Part shown: positions 10,084 through 32,327 of the stretch, in pieces | Numbering within the stretch: the stretch's first letter is position 1 | How the letters are laid out: each line of letters begins with the position of its first letter | DNA from: Myxococcales bacterium | GTDB lineage: Bacteria; Myxococcota_A; Polyangia; Palsa-1104; JAEUJZ01 | DNA length: 64,000 bases | Assembly (NCBI GenBank): GCA_016794365.1 | Contig: JAEUKB010000025.1 | Span: 244,693-308,692, forward strand | Direction: 5' to 3' | Notes under the pieces: model-generated | The model's input: only the letters and a program-made list of their open reading frames with translations | Told to the model about the DNA's origin: nothing | Database searches by the model: none | Translations under genes and position numbers: made by a program

Positions 10084-10229
10084 CGCAAGACTGCGCGCGA
10101 AAATGCCGAGGCTCTGCTTATCGGCAGGTGCTGCTTGTCCGCCCAGGTCTGGATTCGCAGCGCATTCCCACAGACTTCCGCAGTGCTGCCAAGAATGATG
10201 ATTTTCCGTCGAGCAGACTGCGATCAGAG

Positions 10230-12021: not shown

Positions 12022-12024
12022 GAC

Positions 12025-13876: not shown

Positions 13877-13885
13877 CGCGGACTC

Positions 13886-15766: not shown

Positions 15767-16198
15767 CTACAGCAGCCTGCGACACTCCCGTACTTCGCTG
15801 GCGCGGACTCCACTGCGGCCAAGGGGAATCGTTATTCTCCACGGCAGAAGTGGTGCGACCAGCATCTTCCAGCTTGCCGCAGGTGTGGTGTACAGAAAGT
15901 ACAGACCCAGCGGCTTTTCTTTGTCGTGCTTGATCCAAACGCTGCGATATCGACCGGCCTGTGGATCGATGATGACTGAACGCAAAACAGTTGCATCTGG
16001 CGTCACCACCAGCGCGGACACAGAGGCGTGAGACTCACTGCGCTGCTGCTGCTCATCAACCGAGCGAACCAGCACGCGCAGCGGTCTTCCTTCATTGGTG
16101 CTTGGATCAGACAGCAGCGTCAGTTTGACATAGCCGGGATAGCAGCCGCCAAGGATCAGCACAGCCAAGCCGAACAGCCGTAGCCCAATAAGAGGCAT
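15767..16198 (-). CDS. tssJ: T6SS outer-membrane lipoprotein TssJ-like
   Basis: About 143 aa. Signal plus lipobox LAVLILGGC, then the beta-rich region YPGYVKLTLLSDPSTNEGRPLRVLVRSVDEQQ typical of TssJ/SciN. Start placed at MPLIGLRL to avoid overlap with tssM. Confidence 0.55.
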   Translation of the reverse strand: MPLIGLRLFGLAVLILGGCYPGYVKLTLLSDPSTNEGRPLRVLVRSVDEQQQRSESHASVSALVVTPDATVLRSVIIDPQAGRYRSVWIKHDKEKPLGLYFLYTTPAASWKMLVAPLLPWRITIPLGRSGVRASEVRECRRLL

Positions 16199-16211
16199 AG
16201 AAAAAGACTCT

Positions 16212-19200
16212 TTATTGCGCATGTTCGCCAAACAGCTCCCAAGGATCAGGTGTGATCGCAAAGCGAATGATCTGTGTCTCATCCGGGCCATCGCCAATGA
16301 TGCGCCAGGTGCTGACTCCTGTGCCATCCAGCGTCGAGCGCTGAAGCAAGCGATACAGGCTCCAGGCAGAGTCCGTGACCTCTAGTGTTTGGGTGTGCTT
16401 GCGTCCGGTCTTGGCCACTGTGCGCTCCACCCCGATGACCGCCGCGCCTTGTGCCCACCACTCTACTTGCAGCGTGGTTGCGCTGCTCTGCTGGTTGAAA
16501 CCATAGGCGCTGGCTTTGCCAATCTGCAAGTAGGCCAGTGCGGACTGGGCCGTGCTTCCGCTGCTTGACTGGGGACCAGGCAGACCGCGAATCGCCAGCT
16601 GGAGCGGCTGCCGATTCCCATCCGCAGAAAACAGTGCGCGCGACAGCTTGGCCAGCTTGTTCATCGTCGGAAGCATGTCTTTGGGAAGCCGCAGAGTGCC
16701 CAGCGCTCCGCTCTTTGCAACGTATGATTCCCCGCGCTCTGTTACGGCCACTGCATACAAGCTGCGGAGATCTGCAAACAGGGGTCCTCTGCGCTCGCTG
16801 AGCACATCCAGATCGCTCGGTGCAACCTCACGCTCCGCACCGCGCTGAAACGGAAAGCGACTCATCAGCGGAGTGATCTGCGGCTGCATCACCTCTTTCC
16901 AGTGCTGCGCAAACACCTGCTCGATCTCGGTAGAGCCAAGCTGATGAACCGCTAAAAACGGCGCGAGGAACGGTCGCCGCAGCGGACCCGCAATGCCTGC
17001 GCGATCGAGGAACTGCTCTGCTTTGGCCAGGCTCGACTCTTCGCTTCCTTCATGCATCGCGAGCGCACTGCGGGCCAGCGCAGAGAGCTTGCTAGTCAGC
17101 ACGGCAGACTTGTCTTGCGTCGCAGCGGACTTGTCTGCTCTGTCCCCCTTGTCGCTTCCTGAACTCGACTTGTCTGTGGATGCTGTGGGCGCACGATCCA
17201 GATCTGCGATCAGCTTGGCCACCGCTTCATGAAAGGTCGCAAGTCCTTCGACCTTGCTCGATGCAGTGTCACTTGTCGGACGCGTTCCTTGCGCTGCATC
17301 TGGCTGTCCTGCCGCTTTGGGATCGCTCTTGGCTGCGGGGGCCTGACTCTTGGGAGTCATCAGCTCCACGATCGGACGGAAGTCCGCAATGCAGGTCGCA
17401 AGCGGTCGCAGGTAGGGTTCCTCTAGTCCTTGGAGCGTGACGTTATCGACCAGCGTTTTGAGGCGCGCCACAAAGCGCGATCCTGGCTTGATGATGTCCA
17501 CCAGCTCGGAGTGAAGCTGCGACGGAGATACGGCGCTGATGCGATATCCCAAGTGATACTCCAGCAGCGCTGCACAGTAGCCTTGGGAATAGCGCGCCAG
17601 CTCCTTTTGCACGGCCCGCGACAAAGAGATCCGCTCTTCTGCACTGAGGTTGCGATGTCCTCCCAGCGCCTTCTTCAGCTCGGTCACCAGCGGCAAGACC
17701 TCGCGATGATAGACCACGCGGTTGTAAACATCCGATAGACCCACAGCAGGCAGCTCATCGCCGGTTAGGAGTGCCGCGAGCTTGGGCGTAAACTCCTCCT
17801 GGCTCCACAGCGGCAGCGCAGTCGGTCGATCGATCAGCTTTTTGGCAGAGCCGCTGGAAGCCGGGCTGCGTGCTGTCACTTTGCAAGGCGGAAGCAGTCC
17901 GCGCTTTTTGCCAAGCTTGCTACATCGCTTGGTACGCACTGGTCCTTCGGTGGGATGCGGTGCAGACTCATCCATCGAAAACGTCCGCTTGCGACTGCGT
18001 GTAAGCAGCTCTTCCCAGTCTCTGCGGCTGATGTCGATGGCGCTTCCTTCCGCAGGAAACAGAAAGCGATAGGAATCCGAAAGCAAGTGCTCGGAAGACT
18101 TTTTTGCCGACGCTGATTCACTGGTTTCATTGAGCCAGCGCAGCAGCTGATACAGGCTCTTGGTTCCGGCTTGTTCGGTGGTGATGTTGGAATCGCTGAC
18201 CATGCGCAGCAGGCGCTCCATCGGATCTTTTTGATCGAGCAGCCATGGATCAGGGGTTAGGATTCCTACCTCTTGACCGAACAGCTTGAGCATGTCGAGC
18301 GGAGACTCTTCCGCGAGGTTGCGATACCACTGGCGAAGCTGCGCGGCTCGACGCAAAGCCAGCATTCCTTCGATCAGACCGGCACTCCGCTGCTGAAGCG
18401 CAGAAAGCTCTGCTCGGGTGATGTAGGGACGTGCGATCGCATTGTGAACATCGTAAATGAACGCCTTCCACGGACTTAGATCACTGAGCGAATAGCGCAG
18501 GCTCTCTGGTGGAAAAGGAGGCAACGTAGCGATGGCAACCTCTGTCCACGGATCCGTACTGTACTGAATGTAGTCCAGCAGTGTATCGCGTGGGACATTC
18601 AAGTCCGTGGACCAGTCGGTTGCCGATGCCTTGATGAGCGATCCCAGCGTGTTGTCCTTGGTTGCGTACAGCGCCACGAGTGCTCCCAGGATCTTGTCGC
18701 GCGCACGCTGTCGAATCGCTCGCTCCAAGCTGGGCAACAGATAGCCCTTGCGGATCGACTCAATAAAGAGTCTTTCAGAATGCTTCTTATCGGTTCGATA
18801 GATCAGATGAAACGGACGGAAGCGCTGCTCTGCTTCACTGGTGGCAAGCAGCGACTGACTGGCGCTGCGCTCGGCTCTGCGGACGACATCCGATTCACCA
18901 CTGTTGTGCGCAGTCTGAGCGCGAACCACGGCCTGATCAAACGTCAGGTTGGCTTCGCTGGCGGCTTCAACGACCACATGATGGCGACGGGTGACATAGG
19001 TCAGTCCGAACAGTCCCAGACACAGCATCAGCAGCGCCAGCATCGCGTGTACAGGACGAATCCCAAAGGGACGAAGCCAGCGAGCCAGCCGCGATCCCAG
19101 CGCAGTGCTTCTTACTTGGGGCGGGGGCGTAAAGGGGTTGCTGATCTGTTCATCCGCAGCCAGCGATGCAAAGTAGATCCCCTGCACTTCAGGACGAAGG

Positions 19201-20135
19201 GAGCCAATCGCAAGATCGGTCAGTGCAGAGACAAAGCTGGCCGTCGGTGATAGGAACTGATCGGCACCACGCAGAAACTCGACAATGCTCTCAAAGGAAG
19301 ACACCGGCAGCGTCGTCAACGCACGCGGCAGATAGCGCTCATAGTGCGTCATCGACTCGCTTAGATCGCTGTGTGGATCCGCACCAACAGAGAGCTCTAG
19401 CGGGGCCTGTTCTTTGGCCAAAAAGCGCGCCAGATCCGAATAGCCACGCAGTCTGTCCATATGGGTCAGACAGATGCGAACGCGGCCAGTGCTGCCATAG
19501 GTTTCAGACAGCACATTGATCTTGCCGCGCAGAAGCTGGGCTTGCTGACGCAGCTGATCGGGGGGCTGGGTGATGAGCAGAGGCGCAGACAGAACTACAA
19601 TCACCGTCGGAATCTGCTCGACTTCCAGGCTCTTCCACAGCTTGGTCAGCGCGTCGTTGTAGCTCTGCGCAGTGCCATCCTGAATCGCAGAAGAGAACTC
19701 CTCAACCAGGACTTGGCTGCCCAGATAAAGCTGTAGGAGTGGGTCTGCGGTGTAGCTCGGAATGAACTGACTGGTCTGTCCTTGCCAGTCTACTTTGCGA
19801 CTGATGAGCGCACTCTTTCCTGCACCTGTGTTGCCAAAGACAACGAAGTGCGGAAGCTCTGGTGTCGTCGCCCGAACACCGCTGGGAAGTCGAGACTGGA
19901 AGCGTTCCCAGATGTCGCTGAGCCGCGTCTTGGTCATGCTCTGCGCTGGGGTTACGTACGCGGTTCCTTCTTCGCGACGCTTGCGCAGCTTGAACCACCA
20001 AAATAGTAGGACGGCTCCGGCCACAATCAGCAGCACAAACAGAGCCGCCAGGACATAGACATAGGTCGGTCGGGAAGTGGCTCCTGCCGATCCGTCCGTC
20101 GAGGCTGTGGCCAAAGGAAGAAGCACAGACAGCAC
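16212..20135 (-). CDS. tssM: T6SS membrane complex protein TssM (IcmF family)
   Basis: 1307 aa. N-terminal TM helices, Walker A FGNTGAGKSALISRK, a long periplasmic IcmF-like region. Sits immediately after tssL. Confidence 0.85.
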   Translation of the reverse strand: MLSVLLPLATASTDGSAGATSRPTYVYVLAALFVLLIVAGAVLLFWWFKLRKRREEGTAYVTPAQSMTKTRLSDIWERFQSRLPSGVRATTPELPHFVVFGNTGAGKSALISRKVDWQGQTSQFIPSYTADPLLQLYLGSQVLVEEFSSAIQDGTAQSYNDALTKLWKSLEVEQIPTVIVVLSAPLLITQPPDQLRQQAQLLRGKINVLSETYGSTGRVRICLTHMDRLRGYSDLARFLAKEQAPLELSVGADPHSDLSESMTHYERYLPRALTTLPVSSFESIVEFLRGADQFLSPTASFVSALTDLAIGSLRPEVQGIYFASLAADEQISNPFTPPPQVRSTALGSRLARWLRPFGIRPVHAMLALLMLCLGLFGLTYVTRRHHVVVEAASEANLTFDQAVVRAQTAHNSGESDVVRRAERSASQSLLATSEAEQRFRPFHLIYRTDKKHSERLFIESIRKGYLLPSLERAIRQRARDKILGALVALYATKDNTLGSLIKASATDWSTDLNVPRDTLLDYIQYSTDPWTEVAIATLPPFPPESLRYSLSDLSPWKAFIYDVHNAIARPYITRAELSALQQRSAGLIEGMLALRRAAQLRQWYRNLAEESPLDMLKLFGQEVGILTPDPWLLDQKDPMERLLRMVSDSNITTEQAGTKSLYQLLRWLNETSESASAKKSSEHLLSDSYRFLFPAEGSAIDISRRDWEELLTRSRKRTFSMDESAPHPTEGPVRTKRCSKLGKKRGLLPPCKVTARSPASSGSAKKLIDRPTALPLWSQEEFTPKLAALLTGDELPAVGLSDVYNRVVYHREVLPLVTELKKALGGHRNLSAEERISLSRAVQKELARYSQGYCAALLEYHLGYRISAVSPSQLHSELVDIIKPGSRFVARLKTLVDNVTLQGLEEPYLRPLATCIADFRPIVELMTPKSQAPAAKSDPKAAGQPDAAQGTRPTSDTASSKVEGLATFHEAVAKLIADLDRAPTASTDKSSSGSDKGDRADKSAATQDKSAVLTSKLSALARSALAMHEGSEESSLAKAEQFLDRAGIAGPLRRPFLAPFLAVHQLGSTEIEQVFAQHWKEVMQPQITPLMSRFPFQRGAEREVAPSDLDVLSERRGPLFADLRSLYAVAVTERGESYVAKSGALGTLRLPKDMLPTMNKLAKLSRALFSADGNRQPLQLAIRGLPGPQSSSGSTAQSALAYLQIGKASAYGFNQQSSATTLQVEWWAQGAAVIGVERTVAKTGRKHTQTLEVTDSAWSLYRLLQRSTLDGTGVSTWRIIGDGPDETQIIRFAITPDPWELFGEHAQ

Positions 20136-20147
20136 GCTACACTCCTG

Positions 20148-20732
20148 TTACTTTCCGGCCACTCGGCGAAGGCCGCGCAGCGTGTCTTCCAAGCGATACA
20201 GTAGTTCAAACACCGTACCTGCCGAGGCATGACGCATCGGATGATAGGGTGGCGGAGTCGCTCCCGGGGTGAGCCTGGCGATGCGAACACGAAGCGGCTC
20301 AATGATTCCTGACAGCATCGAGACGCGGGGTCCCAGCTCTGTACGCAGAACGAACAGGAGCTTTTCGAGCAGCTCCTCTGGATTTTCCTGCGGAGCATCT
20401 GCCAGATCGATCAGCTCTTCGGCATCTTCGAGGTTCTCAGGATCGGAAACCTCATCCAGGATCTCGTCTACCTCTTCCTGATCAAACCCTTCTTCGGAAT
20501 CTGTCTTCAGCGTGTCTGCATCCGCAGCCTTTGGAGCGTGCTCAGTTGGATCGCTGCCGTCGGTTTTGCGCTGGCTCTGTTTGCTCTTTCGCTTTTTCTT
20601 TCCTGCGCTTGCTGTTGTCTCTCCCGCGATGATGTGATGGAGCGTATCGACCGCGTTGTGCGGCTCTGTCTTCCGTCCCCACAACGGACCCACACGCTGA
20701 CTGTTTAGTAGCTCACTGAAGTTCACTTTCAT
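20148..20732 (-). CDS. Hypothetical charged protein between tssL and tssM
   Basis: 194 aa, with a Lys-rich (KKKRKSKQSQRK) then strongly acidic (EEVDEILDEVSDPENLEDAEELIDLADAP) centre. No TagF (GxFGKLP) or FHA motifs found. Confidence 0.3.
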   Translation of the reverse strand: MKVNFSELLNSQRVGPLWGRKTEPHNAVDTLHHIIAGETTASAGKKKRKSKQSQRKTDGSDPTEHAPKAADADTLKTDSEEGFDQEEVDEILDEVSDPENLEDAEELIDLADAPQENPEELLEKLLFVLRTELGPRVSMLSGIIEPLRVRIARLTPGATPPPYHPMRHASAGTVFELLYRLEDTLRGLRRVAGK

Positions 20733-20795: not shown

Positions 20796-21557
20796 TCACA
20801 GGTTGCTCAGCACGATGATGGCCAGTGCTGCCAGTGACAGCGTCGTCAGCGCCACACCGTAAGGAATCAGTCCGCGCCAGTTGACGCGCTTCCGCAGAGG
20901 CGTCACCGCTTGTGGACTCTGCTCTGGACTCTGCGCGGCTTCGATCGGACGATCGGTCTGCACGCTCGCTTTTGATCCAGCAGATCTGCGCTCACTGCGG
21001 ACTCTGTGGCTTCTGCGCCTGCGCTTTCTGCTGCCGTCGCGGGTGCTACCAGTACCAAGCTGTTCGGCCAGCAGGGTCCGATAGCGCTGGACCTTGCCTC
21101 CTGACTCTCCGAACTTGCCAACGAACCCAGCGGCCAGACAGAAGTACAGCACTTCAAAGACCATCGAAGGAGTGTCTGGCTTGTCTAGTCTCTCATCGAC
21201 AAAGTCGTAAAATACATCGCCGCCATAGTTGATTTGAAACAGCTCAGATTGCAGCAGTGGCCAGCTTGTCTGCTGAGCTTTGGGAAGACGAATCATGACC
21301 ATCTCATCGCAGAGCAGAACCAGAGGAAACATCACCAGATACGTCTCATTTTCAGTCAGTTCGCGGTGCAGCTGATCGCGCAGCGTATCGAGCTTGCTAC
21401 GCAGCTCGCCATGCAGTCGTTGCAAGATCGATGGTTCGATCGGAAGCGCAGCAGAGCGCTCTCCAAATCGGGTGCTTTCGACGGACAGAGAGCGCTCCAG
21501 CAAGCGATGAATGTCGATCCGAAGCGATAAGATGCTGTTCCAGTGACTAAGCTTCAT
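20796..21557 (-). CDS. tssL: T6SS membrane protein TssL (DotU family)
   Basis: MFPLVLLCDEMV, FEVLYFCLAAGFVGKF (DotU signature LEvyylcLslGF.G.y), C-terminal TM VALTTLSLAALAIIVL. Start overlaps the tssF stop. Confidence 0.8.
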   Translation of the reverse strand: MKLSHWNSILSLRIDIHRLLERSLSVESTRFGERSAALPIEPSILQRLHGELRSKLDTLRDQLHRELTENETYLVMFPLVLLCDEMVMIRLPKAQQTSWPLLQSELFQINYGGDVFYDFVDERLDKPDTPSMVFEVLYFCLAAGFVGKFGESGGKVQRYRTLLAEQLGTGSTRDGSRKRRRRSHRVRSERRSAGSKASVQTDRPIEAAQSPEQSPQAVTPLRKRVNWRGLIPYGVALTTLSLAALAIIVLSNL

Positions 21558-23200
21558 CGTCCGTTTTGCCTTTCACTGGGAAGCTGTTCGCGGCTGTGAT
21601 GACGAACCACTTCCGCGCGTCCTTCATAGTTCCATGCATCCAAAAGGCGCTGAAGCTGCTGACAGAACATGTGCCACAGCGGCTCTTCTTCTGCGCGAAC
21701 ATCGGGAACCAGCGCGTGATAGATGTGACGGATTCCTGCGCCGCGCACTGTCTCGTCGGGAGTCAGCTCAACCACCCAGTCGCGAATGCGCGAAAGGAAG
21801 CCGCGATACGGTCCACTTGATCCCGCTTCTAGCATGACAAACAGGGCGTTCAGATCTTCCAGATCAAGCACCGCTTTCATCTTCAGCGAGAGCAAACGCA
21901 GCAGCGCTGCTGCATCCTGACCTAGTTGGGAGTCTGCTCCGCGCTGCATCGGACCCAGTGCGGAAAGCTCGACCCCAAGCATGCTGCGCTCGCGAAGGGT
22001 GATGCTCAGTCGTCCACTTAGATGCTCGCTCAGCGACGGTTGATGCCAGACTCCTTCCACCGCGATGCGCACAGGTTGAAGCAGTGCTTCTGGCATCCGC
22101 AAGATCAGTGCAGCGCGTGGTAAGGATCCTCGCTCATCGGACTGCTGCTCCAGCTCAAAGCTTGGAGTCTTGTTGCTAAGAGTGACCGGAGGAATCGGAA
22201 CCAGTCCATCATCACTTGCTGCAAAAACGCCGGTGATGTGATGCAGTGCGTAGCTCTGATCCGGATGCACAAAACGAACCGGATAGGAGTCCTGGGTTCC
22301 GTCGCAGTCTATCGGCTGCGCAGGTGCCTTCCGTAGTGCCGAAATAGGGACCGTAAAGGGCCTAAAGATCTCGCGATACAGCACAGGACGATGTGGGTAG
22401 TCTGCATCCAGATCAAAGCACAGAGACATCCGGGTAAATGGTCGCGGCGATGCCGGAATCGCAACATGAATGGTTAGCTCTTGCTGCGGAAAGTGTAGAA
22501 AGCTACGAACCGCTGCGAGTGGATTGCGATCATCTGCTTCATATGGTTCATCATGGTACGTTCCAAAGTGAACCGGACAGGTGGGACCGTCTGCGCGATC
22601 ATGAACCGGCTGATCGTACAGCACGAACGCGCGCTGCATGTGTCTCTGTAGCTGCTGATGAACCGTGAGCGCGGCGAGATAGTCATCCAGATAGTGAATC
22701 CCAAGTCGCATCCGTCCCGGTGGTTCACTGCGCGGAATCCGCGAAGAGAAGGTCAACACCAAGCGATAGCCTGTCCCACCGCGCAGCAGCTCACAGCGAT
22801 CGAGCGTCAGTGGAAGCACGCGCAGATCCATTCGGGTCATGAAGCTGGCTAGAAATCCGTCCGCACACTGGACTTGCAACTCGCTTCCAGCGGGCAGATA
22901 GACCGGCTCTGTCATCCGCGCTGTGACTTGGGCTTCCAGGATTCCCATCGCAGGAAGGGGCTGGAGCAGCGACTGAAAGTAGCCACCTAGGAGTCGTCGC
23001 CACGTTGCGCTCAGGTTGCGCAGGACCGCATGTCGAGTCCGCACCGCAGAAAATGCCAGCACCTCGATCAACCGCTGCACATCGGGGTCTTGGGGATCGA
23101 GTACACCGATCCCCTGACTGCTGCTGTAGTTCCGTCGAAAAGACTCCAGTCCGCGTAGCTCATCTAGGAGTCCGAGATCGAGCGTGTGATTAGCTGCCAA
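21554..23200 (-). CDS. tssF: T6SS baseplate protein TssF (ImpG family)
   Basis: The N-terminal LDELRGLESFRRNYSSS...LDPQDPDVQRLIEVLAFSAVRTRHAVLRNLSATWRRLLGGYFQSLLQPLPAMGILE matches the TssF consensus (Y.rEL.yLRe....F...P.....DP.VERLLEGfAFL.AR). 548 aa. Confidence 0.75.
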   Translation of the reverse strand: MAANHTLDLGLLDELRGLESFRRNYSSSQGIGVLDPQDPDVQRLIEVLAFSAVRTRHAVLRNLSATWRRLLGGYFQSLLQPLPAMGILEAQVTARMTEPVYLPAGSELQVQCADGFLASFMTRMDLRVLPLTLDRCELLRGGTGYRLVLTFSSRIPRSEPPGRMRLGIHYLDDYLAALTVHQQLQRHMQRAFVLYDQPVHDRADGPTCPVHFGTYHDEPYEADDRNPLAAVRSFLHFPQQELTIHVAIPASPRPFTRMSLCFDLDADYPHRPVLYREIFRPFTVPISALRKAPAQPIDCDGTQDSYPVRFVHPDQSYALHHITGVFAASDDGLVPIPPVTLSNKTPSFELEQQSDERGSLPRAALILRMPEALLQPVRIAVEGVWHQPSLSEHLSGRLSITLRERSMLGVELSALGPMQRGADSQLGQDAAALLRLLSLKMKAVLDLEDLNALFVMLEAGSSGPYRGFLSRIRDWVVELTPDETVRGAGIRHIYHALVPDVRAEEEPLWHMFCQQLQRLLDAWNYEGRAEVVRHHSREQLPSERQNGR

Positions 23201-26200
23201 GCGGTCCTCCCTTCTTCGCTAGCGCTGCGCTGATTCCTTGGGTCAGACTGCTGACTGTGATTCCTACAGCACTTGGCACGACGGCGTCCTTGGCCGACTT
23301 GACATCTCCTTGCATTGCGCTCTGTCCGCTCGAAGCCAGTGTCTGTTTGAGAGCTGCCTTGGCATCGCTTGCGAAGGGAATCCCAGCACTTGTGACAGCG
23401 CTTGCAGCCGTGACAGCAGAAGAGAGCCCACTTGTGGCTGCGCTCTGCGCTGTACTGCCCAACGCAGAGCTTGGTGCCGCAGACTTCGGATCACTATTGG
23501 CCAACGGAGCGCTCTTGGCTTGAGAGTCCGTCTTGGCTTGGGAATCCGTCTTGGCTTGGGAATCTGTCTTTTCTTTGGCGTCCGTCTTCGACGCTGGCGC
23601 GCTCGACTTGGAGCCTGTCTTGGTCAGCAGATCTTTCATGAACGTGACCAGCTGCTGCTGCACTTGCAGGACATTCTGTCCGTAGTTGAGTAGGCTGCTC
23701 AGCTCTGTCTCGGGCAGGACAGTCTTCGGCTTGCTGGCCATCGAAAAGGCACCCGCTGTCTCATAAGGCTGCTGACCAGGAATCATCATTCCTTGAAACA
23801 GAGAGCTCATCAGCGTCATGGTATCGATCGGATTGAGTGTGACGCTGAGTCCTTTGGAGGACGTGCCATAGGTCTTTTCCAGCACCTTCGCAAACTGCGT
23901 TCCGTAGTCTCCCGCAAACAGAGAGCCTTTCTTCTTCATCTCATCCAGCAGCGTTCCTCCCCCGCCGCCCATGCCTGCTTTGCTGCCGAGCTGATCCATT
24001 CCTGGCATTCCGCTCGCTCCGTTCATGCCAGGAACTCCACTCGCTCCGTTCATGCCAGGAATTCCGCTCGCTCCGTTCATGCCAGGAATTCCGGACATGG
24101 GACTTCCTGTCATGAAGGAAGACTCTGATCCGCCGCCCCCAAGGAGCGATGCAGTCGGATTCCCATTCATCAGCAGAGAGGCTGCTCCCGCACCAGACAG
24201 CGCAGCGTTTCCCGCCGGTAATGATGTGAGTCCGCTTCCGCCCATTCCGCCGCTGTTTGGCTGTAACGTCGCTGCTGCCGCAAACGGATTGCTCAGTCCG
24301 CCGAATCCACCGGCAGCACCAGCGAGACTTGCGACTCCTGCACCAGCTTGTGCCATGGATGATGCAGCGGAGCCACCTGAAGCGAAGCCACTGCCTGAAG
24401 CGAAGCCACTGCCTGAAGCAGAGCCACTGCCTGAAGCAGAGCCACTGCCTGAAGCTGTCGGTGCTTTGGCGGCGGAACCTCCGGTGGAAGGAGTCATTCC
24501 CGGAAGTGTTGTCAAGCTAGGAAGCGTGGCCGCAGTGGCCGTCGGATTGAATCCTTCGGTTGCAAAGAACGGACTGCCTGTGCTCAGTGCGCCGCTGCTT
24601 CCGATTGGTGACGCTCCGGTGAACGATCCGGCTCCTCCCATTCCACCTGCGGGCTGTGTACTGCTCGATCCGAGCTGCGCAGCGGAGCCACCCAATGCGG
24701 AACCCGCAGTCGATGCGGATGGCGCAGCTTGCGCAGACGATGGCATCTGTGAAGCAGACTGTGAAGCAGACTGTGATGTAGATGCAGCGGACTGTGACGC
24801 CGCAGCAGGAGATGAAGACGATGCAGAAGAGGAGCCCGAAGACTCCTGACCCGCAGCGAGTCCTCCCAGAGCGGACAGACCGCCTCCGATCAGACCCAGC
24901 GTGCCACCCAAAAAGCTGGCATCTGGGCGCAGCAGCTTGAGCGCACTCTGCGCCGCAACACCAAGCGGTCCCAGCGCGGTAAATGTCGATTGAAACGCAT
25001 AGTTTACCGCGTCATCAATTCCGCCATCATCCGCTGCACTGCCCGAACCGCTGCCCGAACCACTGCCCGAACCACTCGCAGAAGGAGTCGAAGCTCCTGG
25101 AGCAGCTGGACTTACGGACTGTGAACCAGGCGATGAACTGTTTTGTGAACTGTTTTGTGAGCCGCTCTGTGAACCGCTCTGTGAACCACTCTGTGAACCG
25201 CTCTGTGAACTTTGCGGAGAGCCAGAGCCCGTCGCACCAGGCAGTAGCTCACCCAGCAGTCCTTTGGGCAGAAGTCCTGGCAGAACCTGTCCCATGTTTG
25301 GCATCCCAAGCTGCCACTGATTGCGCAGAAGACCACCCAAGGTAAGCAGCGTATTGAGCTGCGATTCCGTCGGTGCTTCACTTCCGCCTGTGCTGCCTGC
25401 ACCCTGTCCTCCGGCCTGGCTGGTTGCTGGGGAAGGACTTGCTGGCTGGCTCTGTAGGGTGGTTCCTGGAATCGCCGCACCAGCCAGCGCTGCGGTGCCA
25501 CTGGGTGATGAGGACGGACTCTGGCCCATGCTTTGGCCCACGCTTTGGCCCATGCTTTGGCCCATGCTTTGGCCCATGCTTTGGCCCGTGCCTTGACCGA
25601 CTCCTTGTGCCGCTCCCGGTGTTGCACTCTGCGCTGTGCTCTGCGTCGAGTTCTGCGCCGGACTCTGTGCTGATCCCTGGGTCTGGCTTTGCGTTGCGCT
25701 GGCTGAAGACTTGGCATCTGCCGTCGGCAAAAAGCCCGGTGGCAGGAGAGCTGCGGCCAAGACGCCCAGCTCACTTGATGCCGACAGCAGGCTCCCGATT
25801 CCCGGCACTTGACCAAGGACAGACACAAAGCCCACTGGCCCAAGCAAGTTGGACATTCCGGTCAGTAGCTGCGGCATCAGCTGTGGAGTCAGCGCGGCAA
25901 GCTGCTTTTCATCCAGCTGGGAAATCAGGCTCTGTACAGACGGAAGATCGCTGGATCCACTGGCAGTCTTGCTGGCCCCAGATGTGCTCTGGCTGGATGT
26001 ACTGGATGGTGTACTGCCTGGACCGCTCAGGCTCTTTTGCGTACTTTGAGAGTTTTGACTACTTTGAACATTCTGACTGCTCTGATTGTTCTGATTGCTC
26101 TGAATATTTTGAGAATTTTGAACATTCTGACTGCCCTGACTCTTACTCTGGCTACTCTCACCGTTCTGGCCACTCTGGCTGCTGTTGGTACTGCTCTTTT

Positions 26201-27896
26201 CGGACCCTGACTGCGCACTCTGTCCAGAGTCGAGCTTCTTTTTTTGGACCTTTCCCAAGATGGTCGCCAGGATCGAGTTGTTGTCCTGTAACAGCGTGCC
26301 CGACATGCTGTTGCCTGCCGTGCTCTTCGGCGGAATCATGGCATCCATCAGAGAAGAGACTGCATCAGAGTCCCCCGGCTTGAGCCCTGGCAGCAGCGTG
26401 GTGGTGTCATCCTGTCCACCGCCCAGCAGCGGTGTATCCAGCATCTTGATTGCAGCCATCGCAACATCACCGATCGTTTTGGTGAGTACGTTGACGCCGC
26501 TTAGCATGTCGCCTGCCGTCAGGTTTCCGCTCTGAATCTTGGACATCATCTTGCTGCTGTTGTCCAAGTAGTTCGATGCAAAGAACCCAACTGCGACCAG
26601 CGGAAGAAGCTCGGGATAGGCCATGGCCAGTGGCATGGCGGCGTTGCTCAGGCTCTTGATCTGCGTGCTGGCGGACTTGGCGGCGCTGCTTCCGAACTGC
26701 AAACCTGTTGCACTTGGATTCATGCCGCTGGAAAACGGATTGCTCAGGCTGTCGCCGAAGCTGACGTAGTTGCTCCAAGAGTTCATCGGTGCCGACATGC
26801 CACCGATTTGCATCATCGAGCTGGCGCTGGACATGCCCGGAATCGCAGACATCCCAGAAGTGGGAGAGCCGGACATACCACTCTGTCCGCTCATACCACT
26901 CTGTCCAGCCATGCCACTCTGTCCGCCCATCCCGCCCATGCCACCAGGACTGCCGACGCCAATGGTGGGACCGAGGGTTCCGGTGGCTCCCATGTTGAGG
27001 AGTCCTCCGGTGTCCGGGGTTCCGCTCTGTCCGCCCATGCCTGCGCCGCTGTTCATTCCGTAGGTGTTGCCACTGCTCGATAGTGAGTTGGCACTTCCTA
27101 CGCCCGCTCCGGCCCCTGCTTGCGCACCACCTTGGGCACTCTTTCCTGCGCTGTTGCCACTGCTTGCCGCAGAGCCTTGTGGCGGCCCAGGAATCGCTCC
27201 GAACTGTAGATTGGCAGAGGTAATCGAAGTCGTGGGTGCAGAGATCGAAACAGAGACTCCGGTCAGGCTGATGTCCGATCCAAGGAGCTGAACACCTGTA
27301 GCACCACCGACGACAGCGACACCGCCTCCTACTGCGAGCATGGTGACGCTCTGCATGGCGTTCATGGACACCGAAAGACCGTTTAGACTGACTCCGTTTA
27401 GTCCTGATGCTGTGACCGATCCGGGCGAGCTAAGCGACAGATCCGCAAGGCTGGAAACGCTGGTCTGTCCCATGCTCTGTAGGCTGGTTCCCAGCGTAGA
27501 AGTCATGCGGATGTTTTCCGCTTGGACTGAAAAGTTGCGCGCATCGATCGAGACAGAGTCCGCAGTTTGGGTGATGACGCTGTCCCCCTGTGCGCCACTT
27601 ACGCGCGTGGTCAGCTTGACACCATCCATCGTGATCGACTGCTGATTGATGCCGCTCGCATCCAGCACTTCGATCGTCAGTCCGACCGTCTTGTCCATGA
27701 ACATGCGCAGATACAGCGGAAGCTGGGCGACCGGCTGCGCAGTGCCACCTTGAGGGGGAGTCGATCCACTCTGCGTCGATCCACTCTGCGTACCGGGGCC
27801 GGTCGTATTCTGCGTCGGTCCACTCTGCGTACCGGGGCCGGTTGTATTCTGCGTCGGTCCGCTCTGCGGAGACGTGGTGTTCATTGGGTCCGGCAT
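23190..27896 (-). CDS. Giant (1568 aa) Ser/Gly/Gln/Met/Ala-rich repetitive protein of unknown function
   Basis: A single uninterrupted ORF between tssF and the 704-aa gene. The N-terminus has a beta-solenoid-like stretch (VSLNGLSVSMNAMQSVTML..GVSVSISAP). Long tracts of GMGGQSGMSGQSG, SQNxQS, GSGSGS and PEAKPLPEAKPL follow. The last ~250 aa are non-repetitive. Confidence 0.6.
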   Translation of the reverse strand: MPDPMNTTSPQSGPTQNTTGPGTQSGPTQNTTGPGTQSGSTQSGSTPPQGGTAQPVAQLPLYLRMFMDKTVGLTIEVLDASGINQQSITMDGVKLTTRVSGAQGDSVITQTADSVSIDARNFSVQAENIRMTSTLGTSLQSMGQTSVSSLADLSLSSPGSVTASGLNGVSLNGLSVSMNAMQSVTMLAVGGGVAVVGGATGVQLLGSDISLTGVSVSISAPTTSITSANLQFGAIPGPPQGSAASSGNSAGKSAQGGAQAGAGAGVGSANSLSSSGNTYGMNSGAGMGGQSGTPDTGGLLNMGATGTLGPTIGVGSPGGMGGMGGQSGMAGQSGMSGQSGMSGSPTSGMSAIPGMSSASSMMQIGGMSAPMNSWSNYVSFGDSLSNPFSSGMNPSATGLQFGSSAAKSASTQIKSLSNAAMPLAMAYPELLPLVAVGFFASNYLDNSSKMMSKIQSGNLTAGDMLSGVNVLTKTIGDVAMAAIKMLDTPLLGGGQDDTTTLLPGLKPGDSDAVSSLMDAMIPPKSTAGNSMSGTLLQDNNSILATILGKVQKKKLDSGQSAQSGSEKSSTNSSQSGQNGESSQSKSQGSQNVQNSQNIQSNQNNQSSQNVQSSQNSQSTQKSLSGPGSTPSSTSSQSTSGASKTASGSSDLPSVQSLISQLDEKQLAALTPQLMPQLLTGMSNLLGPVGFVSVLGQVPGIGSLLSASSELGVLAAALLPPGFLPTADAKSSASATQSQTQGSAQSPAQNSTQSTAQSATPGAAQGVGQGTGQSMGQSMGQSMGQSVGQSMGQSPSSSPSGTAALAGAAIPGTTLQSQPASPSPATSQAGGQGAGSTGGSEAPTESQLNTLLTLGGLLRNQWQLGMPNMGQVLPGLLPKGLLGELLPGATGSGSPQSSQSGSQSGSQSGSQSGSQNSSQNSSSPGSQSVSPAAPGASTPSASGSGSGSGSGSGSAADDGGIDDAVNYAFQSTFTALGPLGVAAQSALKLLRPDASFLGGTLGLIGGGLSALGGLAAGQESSGSSSASSSSPAAASQSAASTSQSASQSASQMPSSAQAAPSASTAGSALGGSAAQLGSSSTQPAGGMGGAGSFTGASPIGSSGALSTGSPFFATEGFNPTATAATLPSLTTLPGMTPSTGGSAAKAPTASGSGSASGSGSASGSGFASGSGFASGGSAASSMAQAGAGVASLAGAAGGFGGLSNPFAAAATLQPNSGGMGGSGLTSLPAGNAALSGAGAASLLMNGNPTASLLGGGGSESSFMTGSPMSGIPGMNGASGIPGMNGASGVPGMNGASGMPGMDQLGSKAGMGGGGGTLLDEMKKKGSLFAGDYGTQFAKVLEKTYGTSSKGLSVTLNPIDTMTLMSSLFQGMMIPGQQPYETAGAFSMASKPKTVLPETELSSLLNYGQNVLQVQQQLVTFMKDLLTKTGSKSSAPASKTDAKEKTDSQAKTDSQAKTDSQAKSAPLANSDPKSAAPSSALGSTAQSAATSGLSSAVTAASAVTSAGIPFASDAKAALKQTLASSGQSAMQGDVKSAKDAVVPSAVGITVSSLTQGISAALAKKGGPLGS
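24371..24456. repeat. 18-bp tandem repeat (gaagcgaagccactgcct, ~4.7 copies) inside the giant gene
   Basis: Direct reading of the sequence. Other tandem arrays are nearby: 21-bp x3 at ~24020-24090, 12-bp x6 at 25525-25596, and (ctgN)n-type units at ~26040-26140. Confidence 0.85.
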
Positions 27897-27899
27897 GAC

Positions 27900-29937
27900 T
27901 TACTGCGGACCTCGCGGAGTAGACGGAGTAGTGGGTCCACTCGGACTTGGCGAAGGTGTACTACTTGGCGGAGTCGTAGACGGACTTGTCTGTGGACTTG
28001 TCTGTGGACTTGTCTGTGGACCTGTCTGTGGACCTGTCTGTGGACCTGTCTGTGGACCCGGTGGGCGCGGTCCGCTTGTACCCGGCTGCGTCGTGGCTGG
28101 GACTCCTCCCGGTAGCGGCGGAGAGCCAGTAGGAGGCACTGCGGGCATTCCCAGCGGCACCACAATCTTGCGTCCAACCAGGGTTCCTGTTGTAACGCCA
28201 ACCGGAGGGATTCCCACCTGAAGCAGCAGGTTCCCTTCCGCAATCTTGACCAGCTCACTGTCGAACTGATTCAGTCGCTCGATCTCAAAGACCGGCTTTT
28301 CATTTTCATAGGAGTGCTGAACCGATGTGCGATTGATCGGCGTCTTGCCCAGCAGGAGCTGATCTCCTTGCGTCTCCATCGGGAGCTGCGCGGTCGCTCG
28401 CCACTCGCGGAACTGACAGATTTCTGCGCGATCAAAGTACAGCTCAACCAGGATGCGCTCGTATTTATATAATGGAAAATAGAACTGCCCAGGAATGGTG
28501 TTCGGGTGATATGGTGTTGTAATGATTTGATTCGCAAATAGCGGGATCATGACTTTGTACTTCGGCAGCATATTGCGAGGGTCAGGATAAAACTGATACG
28601 TCTCCTCTGTGCTGGTTCCTACTTCGCTAACGACGCGGCCTTCGATGGCTACTGGATATTTTGGTAGAATATATGGAGGAATGCGAAGCTCGGGATCACT
28701 TGCCAGCTCTAAAAATACAATTGTGTGGCAATGAAACTTGGCTGGAACCAGGCCATCATACACTTGGCGAATGTCTGTTTCGTCGCTGCGTCCGCTGAGT
28801 GTGATGCGATAGACACGACATAGCTCGCGCTGTGCTTCAAATGGAATTGCAATATCTTCTGCTGAAAAATCAAGCAAATCGAGCTGAAAATCAACACCTA
28901 CATTTGGGAAATATGGCTTGCTTGGAAATGTTCGATAATGAATCAAAAACTCTGGGCGTGGCATCATGAATGCCTTGGTTCTTTTCTGAAACTCACTTTC
29001 AAATTCGCTTTGAATTTCTGTGTTGAACAGATGATCGTGGCGAATTCCTAGCACTTTGTCGATATTATCTATCGGACGATTCTGGACCGCGCTTACAAAG
29101 TCGTTTAGGACGTTTTTTTGATATCTTGGATAGGATGGGTAATACGCATAAATACGATCAACATCGTGCGGAATGATGTCGAAGGGAGTCGGTCGCGGCT
29201 TGATTCCGTGAATCTGATAGACCTTGCGGGTGTAGTCGTACTGCCAGACCTTCCCCATCTCATCCAGACGCCACATCAGCAGGTCGTAAAAGCTGGCGCG
29301 CTCACTTTTGCGATGTTCGGAGTCACAGCCCAAAAAGATCATGGGCTGCACGATTCCTACATCCAGATCGGGATACTCCACCATGATGTGGGTGGTGCGA
29401 TGCGCATCGATCACTTGACGGAGAGACTTCTGCGTAAACAGCTCGCACGGAAAGTGTTGTCGCCACAGCACCTGCGCAGGATCCGCAAAGCGGAGAAAGT
29501 AGCGCCGATAGGACAACAGATCGTTTCCGAGCTTGGCAACATGCTCGGTCAGTGCGCTCTCTGTGACCAGTCCGTTTACCTCGATCGGAGTCGGTGGAAT
29601 ATTGAGATCTTGATCCGCGCGGAAGGCCTGAATCGTCATCCGCAGCTTGAGCATCGACTTCTGGCGAAACATCGTGATGATGCCATCGCGATCATCGCTC
29701 TGTAGCTCTGCGCTATCGGATACCAAGATCGTGAGCGATCCGGAAAAGCCACTGCTGCGCAGATCGAGATCAAAGTCGATCACGTTGTGACCACTTAGCA
29801 GGATCGGACGCGGAAGGGTGACAGAGCTTAGCTCGATGCGAAAGATGAGTCCTTCGCGATAGCTCTTGGCCGCGTCACACAGCGCATCAAACAGCGGTCT
29901 GTCTTCACGGATGGTATTACGCGCCACGACGCACCTC
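27900..29937 (-). CDS. Large unknown protein (~679 aa) between tssE and the giant gene; Tyr/Phe/Lys-rich body with Pro/Thr-rich C-terminal tail
   Basis: The ORF track gives 27900..30014. A GTG at 29937 preceded by GAGAGG gives a 21-nt overlap with tssE instead of 98 nt. The body is visibly more AT-rich (28300-29200) than its neighbours. The tail is (GPQT)6 then SPQTSPQTSPSTTPPSSTPSPSPSGPTTPSTPRGPQ. No family motif recognised. Confidence 0.5.
27981..28052. repeat. 12-bp x6 tandem repeat ggac(t/c)tgtctgt encoding the (QTGP)n tail
   Basis: Direct reading of the sequence. Confidence 0.9.
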
Positions 29938-30342
29938 TCGCTCGGTGTCTGGCTCGATCTGTACGTCGCCGCTGCACAGATGAAACAGGATCTTGAGCTG
30001 GCACGGAACCGCACCCTTGCGGGTCTTTAGGGAGCCGCGCAGATGGATGTGAAGACGCAGCTCTGCATCGCGACCTTTGCAGGACAGATCACGCAGTCGC
30101 AGACGTGACTCTAGCCGGAAAATGACATCTTCAATCTCACGCAAGATGGAAAGCTGCGCACCTTTGTTGCCCTGCTGCGCCAGATAGTCAGCGACGCCAT
30201 ACTGAATCAGTCTTGAGCTGTATCCTGGCCGCGCGCAGAGCAGGTTCTGTAGGTTCCGCATGACAGACTGCAGCTCATCATCTTGCGGAGGCGACTCTAG
30301 GAATCGGTTGAGGAATGACATGCGCAGCCTTCCTATCGCCAA
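29917..30342 (-). CDS. tssE: T6SS baseplate protein TssE (gp25/GPW lysozyme-like)
   Basis: 141 aa. SFLNRFLESPP...LQSVMRNLQNLLCARPG...YGVADY matches the gp25-like pattern, with tssK immediately upstream. Confidence 0.7.
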   Translation of the reverse strand: MAIGRLRMSFLNRFLESPPQDDELQSVMRNLQNLLCARPGYSSRLIQYGVADYLAQQGNKGAQLSILREIEDVIFRLESRLRLRDLSCKGRDAELRLHIHLRGSLKTRKGAVPCQLKILFHLCSGDVQIEPDTEREVRRGA

Positions 30343-31577
30343 AACAGAAAGAGGTTGGCTCGCTCCAGAACCGGATGGACATACGCAGACAGAGATCCTT
30401 CACGCATCGCGTGATCCCACTCTTCACCGCCTTGCAGAAGATAGAAGTCAACCTCTGGACCGAAGGTGTGCTGAAACGGCGGACGCTCGACCAGCTTGAA
30501 CGGAACGCCACGCAAGACCAAGCGATGCACCAGCGCAAGCCGCGAGGTACACGACAGCTTGATATCATCCATCACAATGCGATCGTGCAGCGTGGGACGC
30601 TGAATCAGCAGATAGACTTCCTGCGCATCTTTGACTTCTTGCGGAAGTCCGCTGCATGTAAACAGACCGTTGCTCTTCTGAAAGCGCAGGTGCGTAGATC
30701 GAACGTACACAGGCCGCAGTGCTTGCTGAAGCAGACGGAAGACCTGTCCCATCGTCCGTCCCAGATCATCATGGGAATAGGGCAGGGCAGTGTGATCGGG
30801 CTGCACTTCATGGAAGCAGCAGGTCTCAAAGTACAGCTCGCGCAGCGCTTGATGCAGACAGTACGGATGAAGCGATACGCGATTGGATAGATCACCAAGC
30901 AGGCTCTCTACTTTGTAGATCGCTGCCAAGCTGCGCCGAATGGTCGCCAGTCTGTCCGGTCGCAAAAAGGTGTCCTGAAGCTGCGCGGCAAGCTGCGGAA
31001 TCAGGGCTCTTAACTGCGCAGACAGAAGCTGTAGGGACGGCTGAAGATGTGGCGTGTTTCCGACGCTGAGAAGAGGCGGAATGGCTGACGCTTGCAGGCT
31101 CCAGCTTCCTGCGACTCCTTTTTCAAACTCACCCAGTCGCAAGGATGCAACGCTGCGCTCGATTTGATCGCTGATGCTCAGGGTTGCGCGCGAAAGGACT
31201 CGCTCGACCGTGCGCGGATCACTGTCATAGACGCGATTCCCTTGCGCAGAGACTGCATCAGACAGAAGGTGCAGATACACGCTGACTCGCGTGGCAGATG
31301 TGGCAGCAAGCGACAGCGGAGCCACCGTGCAGCTACCCGGAACACTGATGACAATTCCTTCGGGAAGGACTGCGGTCAGCTCTCCGATCGACAGCACGCC
31401 ATCACGTAACAGCGACTCATGAAAGGAAAGCTGCGCAATCCCGTAGTGAGGAAGTCCTCCGACCCGTGCGCGAAGCTCACTGGCTGATGCCGTAAGCTCC
31501 TGCAAGGCCACAAAGTGCTCGGGCAGGACCGTCTGCCCCAGATACCATCTTACGGGTGCGATCTTCAGCGTGCTCAT
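30333..31577 (-). CDS. tssK: T6SS baseplate protein TssK
   Basis: MSTLKIAPVRWYLGQTVLPEHFVALQE matches the TssK N-terminus (M.K..W.EG..L.PQHFQQ). About 414 aa. The alternative start at 31670 adds 31 non-conserved residues. Confidence 0.75.
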   Translation of the reverse strand: MSTLKIAPVRWYLGQTVLPEHFVALQELTASASELRARVGGLPHYGIAQLSFHESLLRDGVLSIGELTAVLPEGIVISVPGSCTVAPLSLAATSATRVSVYLHLLSDAVSAQGNRVYDSDPRTVERVLSRATLSISDQIERSVASLRLGEFEKGVAGSWSLQASAIPPLLSVGNTPHLQPSLQLLSAQLRALIPQLAAQLQDTFLRPDRLATIRRSLAAIYKVESLLGDLSNRVSLHPYCLHQALRELYFETCCFHEVQPDHTALPYSHDDLGRTMGQVFRLLQQALRPVYVRSTHLRFQKSNGLFTCSGLPQEVKDAQEVYLLIQRPTLHDRIVMDDIKLSCTSRLALVHRLVLRGVPFKLVERPPFQHTFGPEVDFYLLQGGEEWDHAMREGSLSAYVHPVLERANLFLFWR

Positions 31578-31685
31578 CGCTTTGCTTGCCACTCGCCACG
31601 CGAGTAAGCGGTCTATGTAACGCGCCACAGAACAGGGAATCGGATCCAAACGGAACGACTCCCGACACACAGATTCCGACTCTGC

Positions 31686-32327
31686 TTACGTCGCTGGACC
31701 CTGTCGTCCCCAGTTCTTGGTGACCTTGCGAGTGGCCGAGGTCGCAAACAGCAGCGACTGAACCTCTGGCTTGGGAACCACCTTGAGCGTCAGCTTGTAG
31801 TTCTTCGGCGACTCGACATCGGTTCCGGCCTCTGCATCGATCTCCAGTCCGAGCGCTTCGCCGTCTTTCTGAATCTGTCCGCGCACCGATCTTCCAGCTG
31901 CGGCATCGGTTGCAGCCTGCGCAGAGTTTGAAAATGCAGCGTAGTACTTTTTGGAAAGCGGATCGTATTCATAGACCACGAATCCCACTTCACAATCGAC
32001 ATCGATCATCGATGCGTAGACCAGAGCGCTGATCGCTTGCTTGCTGGCAATCGAGACCTGCGCTTCAAAGATCAGCGGATCGGTATCACCGAGCGCCCAG
32101 GTGACGTTGGCCAGGACGCCAACAACGGTGAGCGCACCGATGGTTGCGGTGGCATTTGCGGTCAGTCCGGTTCCGGTGACTGCGGCCATCGGGCTGTTCA
32201 CCGTGAAGTCTGGCGTAAACGTCTCCATACCGATCTTGAGCGAAGTCAGAAAGCCAATCGTTGCTTGCTGATCTTTCTTAAAGTCGAAGCCCTGCTTCAC
32301 ATTCATCGCGCGGTTGTACTCGGCCAT
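31686..32327 (-). CDS. Candidate inner-tube (Hcp-like) protein, divergent, 213 aa
   Basis: Occupies the position directly downstream of tssB-tssC where hcp usually sits. Beta-rich, no TM. No Hcp motif could be confirmed by eye. Confidence 0.3.
   Translation of the reverse strand: MAEYNRAMNVKQGFDFKKDQQATIGFLTSLKIGMETFTPDFTVNSPMAAVTGTGLTANATATIGALTVVGVLANVTWALGDTDPLIFEAQVSIASKQAISALVYASMIDVDCEVGFVVYEYDPLSKKYYAAFSNSAQAATDAAAGRSVRGQIQKDGEALGLEIDAEAGTDVESPKNYKLTLKVVPKPEVQSLLFATSATRKVTKNWGRQGPAT

Follow-up and report, generated by a model that had tools for sequence, protein, structure and literature searches.

A giant reading frame in a myxobacterial type VI secretion locus is apparently a split Francisella-type VgrG needle with a long tail predicted to be mostly disordered

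The window, i.e. the whole 64,000-nucleotide stretch of DNA analyzed here (positions 244,693 to 308,692 of contig JAEUKB010000025.1, assembly GCA_016794365.1, from a Myxococcales bacterium), carries a type VI secretion system (T6SS) gene cluster on the minus strand. The order of the genes is tssB, tssC, a 213-aa gene, tssK, tssE, a 675-aa gene, a 1568-aa open reading frame (ORF), tssF, tssL/DotU and a 194-aa gene, followed by a tssM-like gene, an IglE_N gene, an AMP-binding enzyme, a DUF4280 PAAR-like gene, a 486-aa protein and tssG. The 1568-aa ORF, referred to as the giant, is the subject of this work. It is apparently a split Francisella-type VgrG needle with an evolved, disordered tail of ~1,340 residues, and a PdpA-type spike outside Francisella is apparently undescribed. 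The original prediction, which was made from the letters of the DNA, placed the giant between tssE and tssF. The giant does adjoin tssF, but it is separated from tssE by the 675-aa gene. It is tightly packed between its neighbors, with its ATG 3 nt after the TAA stop of the 675-aa gene and its last codons overlapped by 11 nt by tssF, whose TTG start at position 23200 is preceded by a AAGGGAGG Shine-Dalgarno sequence.

The giant is a real coding gene. As originally predicted, it is a single intact ORF on the minus strand, with zero internal stops over 1568 codons from ATG to TAA. By a rough estimate, a stop-free run of this length is beyond chance expectation. The protein is dominated by Ser (18.9%), Gly (15.7%), Ala (11.9%), Thr (7.7%), Gln (7.5%), Pro (6.0%) and Met (4.1%), and it contains six Arg, two Trp, and neither Cys nor His. 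Of the 25 tandem-repeat arrays detected in the window by Tandem Repeats Finder, 13 are inside the giant gene, which makes up 7% of the window. Their periods are 9, 12, 15, 18, 27, 36 and 39 bp, every one divisible by 3. The predicted 12- and 18-bp units are among them, while the predicted 21-bp unit was not found in the giant by the same program. Six metagenome contigs from ~99% identical strains cover the locus, and the frame is kept in five independent assemblies. Within the 785 codons that could be compared with the giant, 16–17 codons differ synonymously and 6–7 non-synonymously; apart from one indel of 39 bp and one of 12 bp, both in-frame, there are no clean indels. Pseudogenisation in relatives had been named as an observation that would speak against the prediction. 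The relatives display in-frame indels, a synonymous excess and uninterrupted ORFs, with the exception of one locus, L009, which has split ORFs. The strain contigs terminate within the repeats of the giant. Because assemblies break in these repeats, an exact look-up did not find the full-length giant protein in a large protein collection. Short-read metagenome assembly systematically breaks genes like the giant, which are hence nearly invisible in protein databases.

The N-terminal part of the giant had been described as β-solenoid-like and reminiscent of a spike. Profile comparison assigns residues 63–228 to a short Francisella-type VgrG/TssI needle domain. Scans of the whole giant and of six pieces of it against Pfam, of the whole giant against NCBIfam, and a phmmer search of the whole giant against PDB sequences gave only compositional matches, to Gly/Ser linkers and to a serine-rich model. 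The serine-rich surface model in question, NF033849, has a cut-off of 650 bits, and the giant scores 18.2 bits with it, a match of composition only. A word-indexed search with the needle domain returned two fragments only. An exhaustive HMMER search with residues 56–239 returned 127 relatives, mostly stand-alone proteins of 160–220 aa, with single-sequence E-values down to 1e-14. We aligned 49 of the 127 relatives, and built in addition a 47-member profile of stand-alone needles; to avoid circularity, neither the window protein nor the relative nearest to it is part of this profile. The 47-member profile matches the giant once, at residues 63–228, with 112 bits, and matches the Francisella VgrG chain 6u9e_B with an E-value of 1e-7. 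The 49-member family profile matches the β-helical ends of the VgrG structures 8gra (E 2.8e-10) and 9gtr (E 1.4e-7), and also the 189-residue chain 6u9e_B (E 2.2e-7). The NCBIfam model NF041249 (T6SS_TssI_Fran) is matched by 40 of the 49 family members, and Pfam DUF2345 by 18 of them. The giant holds a single needle domain and, unlike canonical VgrG, has no gp27-like head or OB (oligonucleotide/oligosaccharide-binding) fold in its chain. Short needles have about 160–220 aa and end at the needle, whereas the giant has 1568 aa and runs ~1,340 aa beyond the domain. The low-complexity leader in front of the domain corresponds to the hub-needle linker of the fused homologues P0017 and P0059, and its copy number in L001 differs by 39 bp.

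The missing head is probably provided by the 675-aa gene, which, judged by its profile and its structure model, encodes a PdpA-like gp27/OB hub. The gene starts with a GTG at 29927, which puts its first codons into an 11-nt overlap with the stop of tssE. The sole PDB sequence match to a profile of 31 hub homologues is Francisella PdpA (6u9e_A, E 2.6e-5). The AlphaFold2 model of the hub, which was built on the alignment of these homologues, has a mean pLDDT (predicted local distance difference test) of 71.7, and its last ~100 residues, rich in Pro/Thr/Gln, are disordered. In a Foldseek search with this model, the top three matches are PdpA entries (best E 5.8e-23), which are followed by VgrS, VgrG1, spikes of extracellular contractile injection systems, and phage gp27. 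Francisella VgrG is unusually short, and its gp27/OB head is provided by PdpA (PMC5924787; PMC9600919). Other genomes encode hub and needle in one polypeptide, in which the hub is always N-terminal (P0017 with 855 aa, P0059 with 756 aa, L043, L045 and L085). These fusions link the two window genes functionally, and the N-terminal place of the hub fixes the polarity, so that the tail of the giant would leave the needle at the distal tip. A ~100-residue GPQT/SPQT repeat, with a 12-bp array at 27982–28058, is located at the C-terminus of the hub (27900–28200), and a 55-residue TQSGP-type repeat is located at the N-terminus of the giant (27732–27896). As the two repeats flank the linker point of the fused homologues, the gene split would lie within the former linker. 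To our knowledge, Francisella is the only organism for which the structure of a two-piece spike (PdpA plus VgrG) has been solved. The needle of VgrG/gp5 type agrees with the spike role proposed for the giant. The proposal that the giant is part of the T6SS, and no unrelated surface protein, is supported as well.

The tail following the needle (residues 229–1568; about 127 kDa per chain) is composed of five islands, I1 to I5, and of low-complexity linkers (Table 1). The islands are in fixed order across the orthologues and are 40–68% identical, compared with 72–80% for the needle itself. Among four full-length orthologues, the linkers are 159–174 aa long between needle and I1, 86–151 aa between I1 and I2, 46–122 aa between I2 and I3, 66–87 aa between I3 and I4, and 32–400 aa between I4 and I5, and the C-terminal tail has 45–148 aa. 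The I4–I5 stretch comprises 307 aa in the window, 400 aa in L018, and 32–42 aa in L007 and L021. The linkers are alike in composition (Ser/Gly/Ala/Gln/Pro/Met) but not in sequence, and their repeats differ per lineage: GQSM, GSQS and GIPGMNGAS are found in the window versus TN, GVPNS, GTPQ and MPG in L018. In the AlphaFold2 model of residues 369–1568, 982 of the 1200 residues (82%) have a pLDDT below 50, and confident helices are located in the islands only. I1, which was compared in L007, L021 and L018, has helices at residues 403–487 with a pLDDT of about 89–91 over residues 409–468. I2 has helices at residues 670–717 (pLDDT 72–75), I3 has one helix at residues 844–858 (53–68), and I5 has helices at residues 1316–1426 (47–70), while I4 and the I4–I5 stretch are below 50. 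The hydrophobic segment of I1 has a 19-residue Kyte-Doolittle average of 1.5–1.9 in all four orthologues, which is borderline for a membrane helix. The tail as a whole is predicted to be mostly disordered, and its islands are joined by fast-evolving, repeat-generated linkers. Its last ~250 residues had been considered non-repetitive. This description fits the conserved module at residues 1298–1427, but not the (KTDSQA)x4 and Ala/Ser-rich residues behind it; the Ala/Ser-rich terminal tail is absent in two of three complete orthologues. A search with the five concatenated islands against 5.8 billion protein clusters returned only fragments of close orthologues (P0158–P0160), hence the islands are without other contexts in this collection. 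Two distant fused spikes from other metagenomes, P0037 (2210 aa) and P0051 (1474 aa), contain repeated helical A-x-x-G-L-L-P-P motifs, which are inserted into the hub and also extend the chain behind the needle. In the window, residues 700–716 of I2 hold LLPPGFLP, and residues 860–886 (I3) hold LPGLLPKGLLGELLPG. The A-x-x-G-L-L-P-P-like motif may be a binding motif that the two distant proteins share with the window islands.

We then inspected the relatives. A scan with the hub profile, with one genome per species, yielded at least 174 relatives; 80 of them were examined, and the needle domain was located in every one. In ~60 loci, the needle gene directly follows the hub gene and the protein stops exactly where the domain does, the consensus ending in ...LVKLG. 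These plain needles occur in Archangium, Corallococcus, Myxococcus, Pyxidicoccus, Polyangium, Sorangium, Haliangium, Methylococcales and Syntrophobacteraceae, among others. The clade nearest to the window consists of metagenome-assembled genomes (MAGs) labelled "uncultured Myxococcales", whose hubs are 63–83% identical. Their needles are extended C-terminally by 876 aa (L007/L008), 994 aa (L021), 1387 aa (L018), or more than 610 aa up to the contig end (L014), and full-length orthologues at the same position have 1101 aa (L007), 1219 aa (L021) and 1587 aa (L018). Hub, needle and an extension of 871–1019 aa form one ORF in L023 and L038/L041. In L009 (hub 50% identical; 11939–15641), the needle is followed by a 224-aa GGGSPF-type Gly-rich extension and a stop, after which a 741-aa ORF rich in Gly/Ala/Met/Gln/Pro is found in a different frame; this arrangement reflects a true split of the gene or else a frameshift error within the GC-rich repeat. 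Presence and length in relatives, which the original prediction had proposed to compare, are thus variable: the tail is absent in ~60 loci and spans 876–1387 aa in the complete orthologues. Its distribution points to a lineage-specific add-on to the 3′ end of the needle gene in one uncultured Myxococcota clade, which is apparently dispensable for the machine in most lineages.

Based on these observations, the giant is probably the needle half of a two-piece T6SS spike, namely an "evolved" split VgrG with a disordered tail riding the tip as cargo. The needle would trimerise on the hub and be capped by the DUF4280 protein. Three tails would then come out next to the PAAR-like cap at the distal tip, like those of "evolved" VgrGs, and contraction of the sheath would expel them together with the spike. 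Disorder would let ~127 kDa per chain pack around, or thread through, the baseplate and membrane complex without unfolding. The conserved islands would be the working parts, which after delivery most likely bind to a target structure or insert into it. The tail itself would be the delivered cargo, and we rank this reading first; among the roles proposed earlier, that of cargo is the best remaining one for the tail. Several points weigh against this explanation. The window needle sequence alone fails to reach NF041249 at E ≤ 1, a profile restricted to the extension clade retrieves no VgrG from the PDB, and a comparison of this clade with Francisella VgrG by hhalign is negative (E 0.088). As these direct tests are negative, the needle membership rests on a transitive, though strong, chain of profile matches via the stand-alone needles. 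None of the islands matches a Pfam, NCBIfam or PDB family, and no toxin, enzyme or adaptor fold was recognized among them. A Foldseek search of the tail model against the PDB gave no match with E < 1; a weak likeness to small helical membrane subunits is not evidence. A transmembrane scan finds borderline hydrophobic segments but no clear membrane helix. The alignment behind the AlphaFold2 model of the tail has 6 sequences, and the low pLDDT stems partly from these shallow data. Finally, the term cargo is argued from architecture and not from activity, and we infer the trimer, the secretion and the tip location of the giant.

A possible but less probable reading, which we rank a near second, takes the tail for a multi-site tether or adaptor, whose islands would dock separately encoded effectors or chaperones and fold on binding, so that one spike carries several cargos like beads on a string. 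The islands have the usual look of binding motifs, as they are short (30–150 aa), helical and rich in hydrophobic motifs within disorder, and similar "G-L-L-P-P" helical motifs recur in the insertions and extensions of P0037 and P0051. In canonical T6SSs, the docking of effectors onto C-terminal extensions of VgrG is established. However, no candidate partner was found, and TTR, DUF4123, DUF1795 and DUF2169 were not detected in the tail or the adjoining genes. The systems with plain needles evidently work without such a tether.

It appears doubtful, yet conceivable, that the tail is a payload acting by its physical properties, i.e. as a leash, an adhesive net, or a gel-forming or membrane-coating polymer with the islands as anchors, and that the locus at the same time is part of an extensive group, so far undescribed, that is sister to the Francisella T6SS and spread across Myxococcota and other phyla. 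Three disordered chains of ~1,340 residues fired on the spike could then, for instance, tether prey to predator; the contour length of each chain is, by a rough estimate, several hundred nanometres. Marginally less probable again is an action inside the producer, in which the undelivered tail plugs or anchors the spike in the membrane complex or sets the timing of assembly. The gene is indeed in the middle of a structural operon and translationally coupled to tssF, and the narrow length range of the linker between needle and I1 might mean a fixed distance within the machine. On the other hand, ~60 homologous systems with the same structural genes lack the tail, and the other linkers vary up to 12-fold among close relatives, which is hard to fit to a fixed structural role. 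This patchy distribution and the variable linker lengths make a producer-side role less likely.

A tape-measure role, with the chain in the tube lumen setting the length of tube and sheath, had been put forward by the original prediction. The great and variable length among relatives (1101–1587 aa) and the place of the gene in the baseplate block are in its favor. No T6SS is known to use a tape measure, and the tail has no family match to tape-measure proteins. The hub is N-terminal in the fusions, and the chain would hence leave the needle at its C-terminus, the end facing away from the tube. As the tail is on this wrong end of the spike, is mostly predicted to be disordered without a long continuous helix, and is absent from most homologous systems (~60), the tape-measure idea is very unlikely and we do not retain it. 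The least credible reading is that the ORF is no real single gene but a chimera of the assembly, a pseudogene in decay, or a serine-rich surface adhesin that lies in the locus by chance, for although metagenome assemblies break within the repeats, the NF033849 match exists with its 18 bits, and the equivalent region of L009 has 463-aa and 741-aa ORFs in different frames, the ORFs are uninterrupted and have the same module order in the L004, L005, L014, L007/L008, L018 and L021 assemblies, synonymous changes prevail, the indels are multiples of 3, needle and tail share one frame, and the gene is coupled to its neighbors at both start and stop, so that the independent assemblies and the substitution pattern leave no place for an artefact or a pseudogene.

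The remaining genes of the cluster (Table 1) were also inspected, and a sigma-54 activator is divergently transcribed upstream of them. The best PDB match of TssB is Francisella IglA, with 102 bits versus 63 for the next one, and that of TssC is Francisella IglB, with 389 versus 358 bits; both precede the canonical sheaths. TssK is of the canonical type, as its PDB matches are TssK. TssF scores 78.9 bits with the TssF model of NCBIfam, higher than 37.4 bits with the IglH-type model, and both scores are under the cut-offs. The 213-aa protein, located at the place of the tube gene (hcp/iglC), has no match in the family libraries or the PDB, and a conserved gene for 190–219 aa is at the same place in L007, L009 and L011. 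The 486-aa protein has no family match. Between its helical-looking ends is an acidic insert of ~170 residues, which consists of (DDDS)n and runs of Glu and is encoded by 12-bp arrays at 12462–12852; its L011 homologue has 337 aa and is without the insert. It is the second T6SS gene in this organism inflated by repeats. The AMP-binding (adenylate-forming) enzyme beside the DUF4280 gene is kept in L011 (17189–18901) and L013 (8918–10753), and is conserved even where the hub is only ~33% identical. The flanks of the cluster (8896–10083 and 10128–11099 on the plus strand, 36541–40384 on the minus strand) encode a Peptidase_C39-like protein, a Ser/Thr kinase fragment, a DUF5648/CPL1-like protein, and a DUF1552 and DUF1585-1595 pair. 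The latter (PSD/PSCyt) pair is better known from planctomycetes, but a planctomycete as host was discarded, since the closest genomes carry the label Myxococcales.

Table 1. Positions in the window of the T6SS genes and of the modules of the giant
Feature	Positions	Strand	Remarks
tssB (sheath)	33922–34545	minus	Pfam VipA
tssC (sheath)	32390–33880	minus	Pfam VipB
213-aa protein at tube-gene (hcp/iglC) place	31686–32327	minus	putative role by position only
tssK	30333–31670	minus	Pfam T6SS_VasE, E 8.7e-40; NCBIfam TIGR03353, 295 bits, above cut-off
tssE (gp25-like)	29917–30342	minus	Pfam GPW_gp25, E 2.2e-9
PdpA-like spike hub (gp27 and OB of split VgrG), 675 aa	27900–29927	minus	Pro/Thr/Gln repeat tail
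Giant gene, needle-type VgrG with long C-terminal extension	23190–27896	minus	1568 aa, ATG to TAA
Giant, low-complexity leader, residues 1–55	27732–27896	minus	TQSGPTQNTTGPG repeats, 39-bp array
Giant, VgrG needle, gp5-like β-helix, short Francisella type, residues 63–228	27213–27710	minus	profile match
Giant, linker 1, Gly/Ser/Ala/Met-rich, residues 229–402	26691–27212	minus	includes (GQSGMS)n; 159–174 aa in four orthologues, sequence divergent
Giant, island I1, residues 403–556	26229–26690	minus	helical bundle and hydrophobic segment of ~25 residues; 53–55% identity
Giant, island I2, residues 650–716	25749–25949	minus	LGPVGFVSVL...LLPPGFLP, helical; 40–48% identity
Giant, island I3, residues 839–872	25281–25382	minus	LLTLGGLLRNQWQLG...; 47–63% identity
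Giant, island I4, residues 956–990	24927–25031	minus	DDGGIDDAVNYAF...LGPLGVAAQ; 57–68% identity
Giant, I4–I5 low-complexity stretch, residues 991–1297	24006–24926	minus	most length-variable part; Tandem Repeats Finder arrays of 12, 18 and 27 bp
Giant, island I5, residues 1298–1427	23616–24005	minus	helical, best-conserved tail module; 63–68% identity (L007, L021, L018, L013)
Giant, (KTDSQA)x4 and Ala/Ser-rich tail, residues 1428–1568	23193–23615	minus	not conserved; pLDDT <50
tssF, 548 aa	21554–23200	minus	Pfam T6SS_TssF, E 1.1e-17
tssL/DotU	20796–21557	minus	
194-aa ORF	20148–20732	minus	
tssM-like	16212–20135	minus	
IglE_N lipoprotein-like	15767–16327	minus	IglE_N, E 5.6e-15
AMP-binding enzyme	13886–15709	minus	
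DUF4280 PAAR-like cap	13463–13876	minus	DUF4280, E 1.3e-22
486-aa protein with acidic repeat insert	12025–13485	minus	
tssG	11068–12021	minus	

The closest known counterpart is the split spike of the Francisella pathogenicity island, whose T6SS is of subtype ii (T6SSii). The split of the spike into a hub and a needle-only VgrG resembles Francisella PdpA and its 164-aa VgrG (6u9e/f/g), and the likeness extends to the IglA/IglB-like sheath, to the IglE_N protein, and to the DUF4280 cap, which is like Francisella IglG (PMC5349215). With these hallmarks, the whole locus (11068–34545) appears to be a non-Francisella relative of the Francisella T6SS. There are several differences as well. Francisella VgrG is without a C-terminal extension (PMC5924787), whereas the window needle carries ~1,340 aa after the domain. 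In the window, the hub and needle genes are adjacent, a canonical-type TssK is recognisable where T6SSii has IglD, as are a gp25-type TssE and TssG, and TssF is closer to the canonical than to the IglH model; moreover, the host is an uncultured myxobacterium. The Francisella-like locus type is also seen in the related loci L011, L013 and L024–L093, and the pair of hub and needle in at least 174 genome stretches. T6SSii is stated to be restricted to Francisella (PMC4793230; PMC12955703), and the literature covered here assigns the two-piece spike with IglE and an IglG-type cap to Francisella only. Our literature search, the coverage of which was incomplete, found no description of a myxobacterial T6SS of this type or of a disordered evolved VgrG. 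The two-piece spike of PdpA and VgrG would hence not be unique to Francisella; it appears to be common in Myxococcota and occurs also in MAGs labelled Methylococcales and Syntrophobacteraceae, and it is accompanied by more canonical baseplate genes. Archangium, Corallococcus and Polyangium offer partly cultivable, non-pathogenic relatives for studying the split spike.

Within its own family, the giant shares both the domain and the place between hub and tssF with the stand-alone needles of ~200 aa beside the PdpA-like hubs of Archangium and others. These needles stop at the domain end, whereas the window protein runs ~1,340 aa further. In part, the giant also resembles tape-measure proteins such as Afp14, as these are long, length-variable chains encoded among tail and baseplate genes. 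It differs from them in having no sequence match, in carrying its chain on the wrong spike end, and in the predicted disorder of this chain, which is dispensable in most homologues. The original prediction regarded the gene as foreign to canonical T6SS loci. This holds for the ~1,340-aa tail, which is non-canonical, but not for the N-terminal domain, which belongs to the core component TssI/VgrG.

The tail is best compared with the C-terminal effector extensions described for VgrGs (PMC5924787; PMC9600919). Such add-ons are a main route of effector delivery by T6SSs. Similar to the evolved VgrGs, e.g. V. cholerae VgrG1 with its actin cross-linking domain and VgrG3, the giant has extra C-terminal sequence at the needle tip (for the principle, see PMC5924787), namely residues 229–1568. 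Different from the giant, the evolved VgrGs keep the gp27/OB head in-chain, while the head in the window is a separate protein. A needle-only VgrG with such a tail is unusual, and the packing and firing of a ~127-kDa disordered chain, and the action of its islands in the target, are questions that the giant raises for this class of proteins. In the known cases, the extension is a folded domain with an enzymatic or binding function and a length of a few hundred residues, whereas the extension in the window is ~82% predicted disordered and has five small islands, none of which matches an effector domain.

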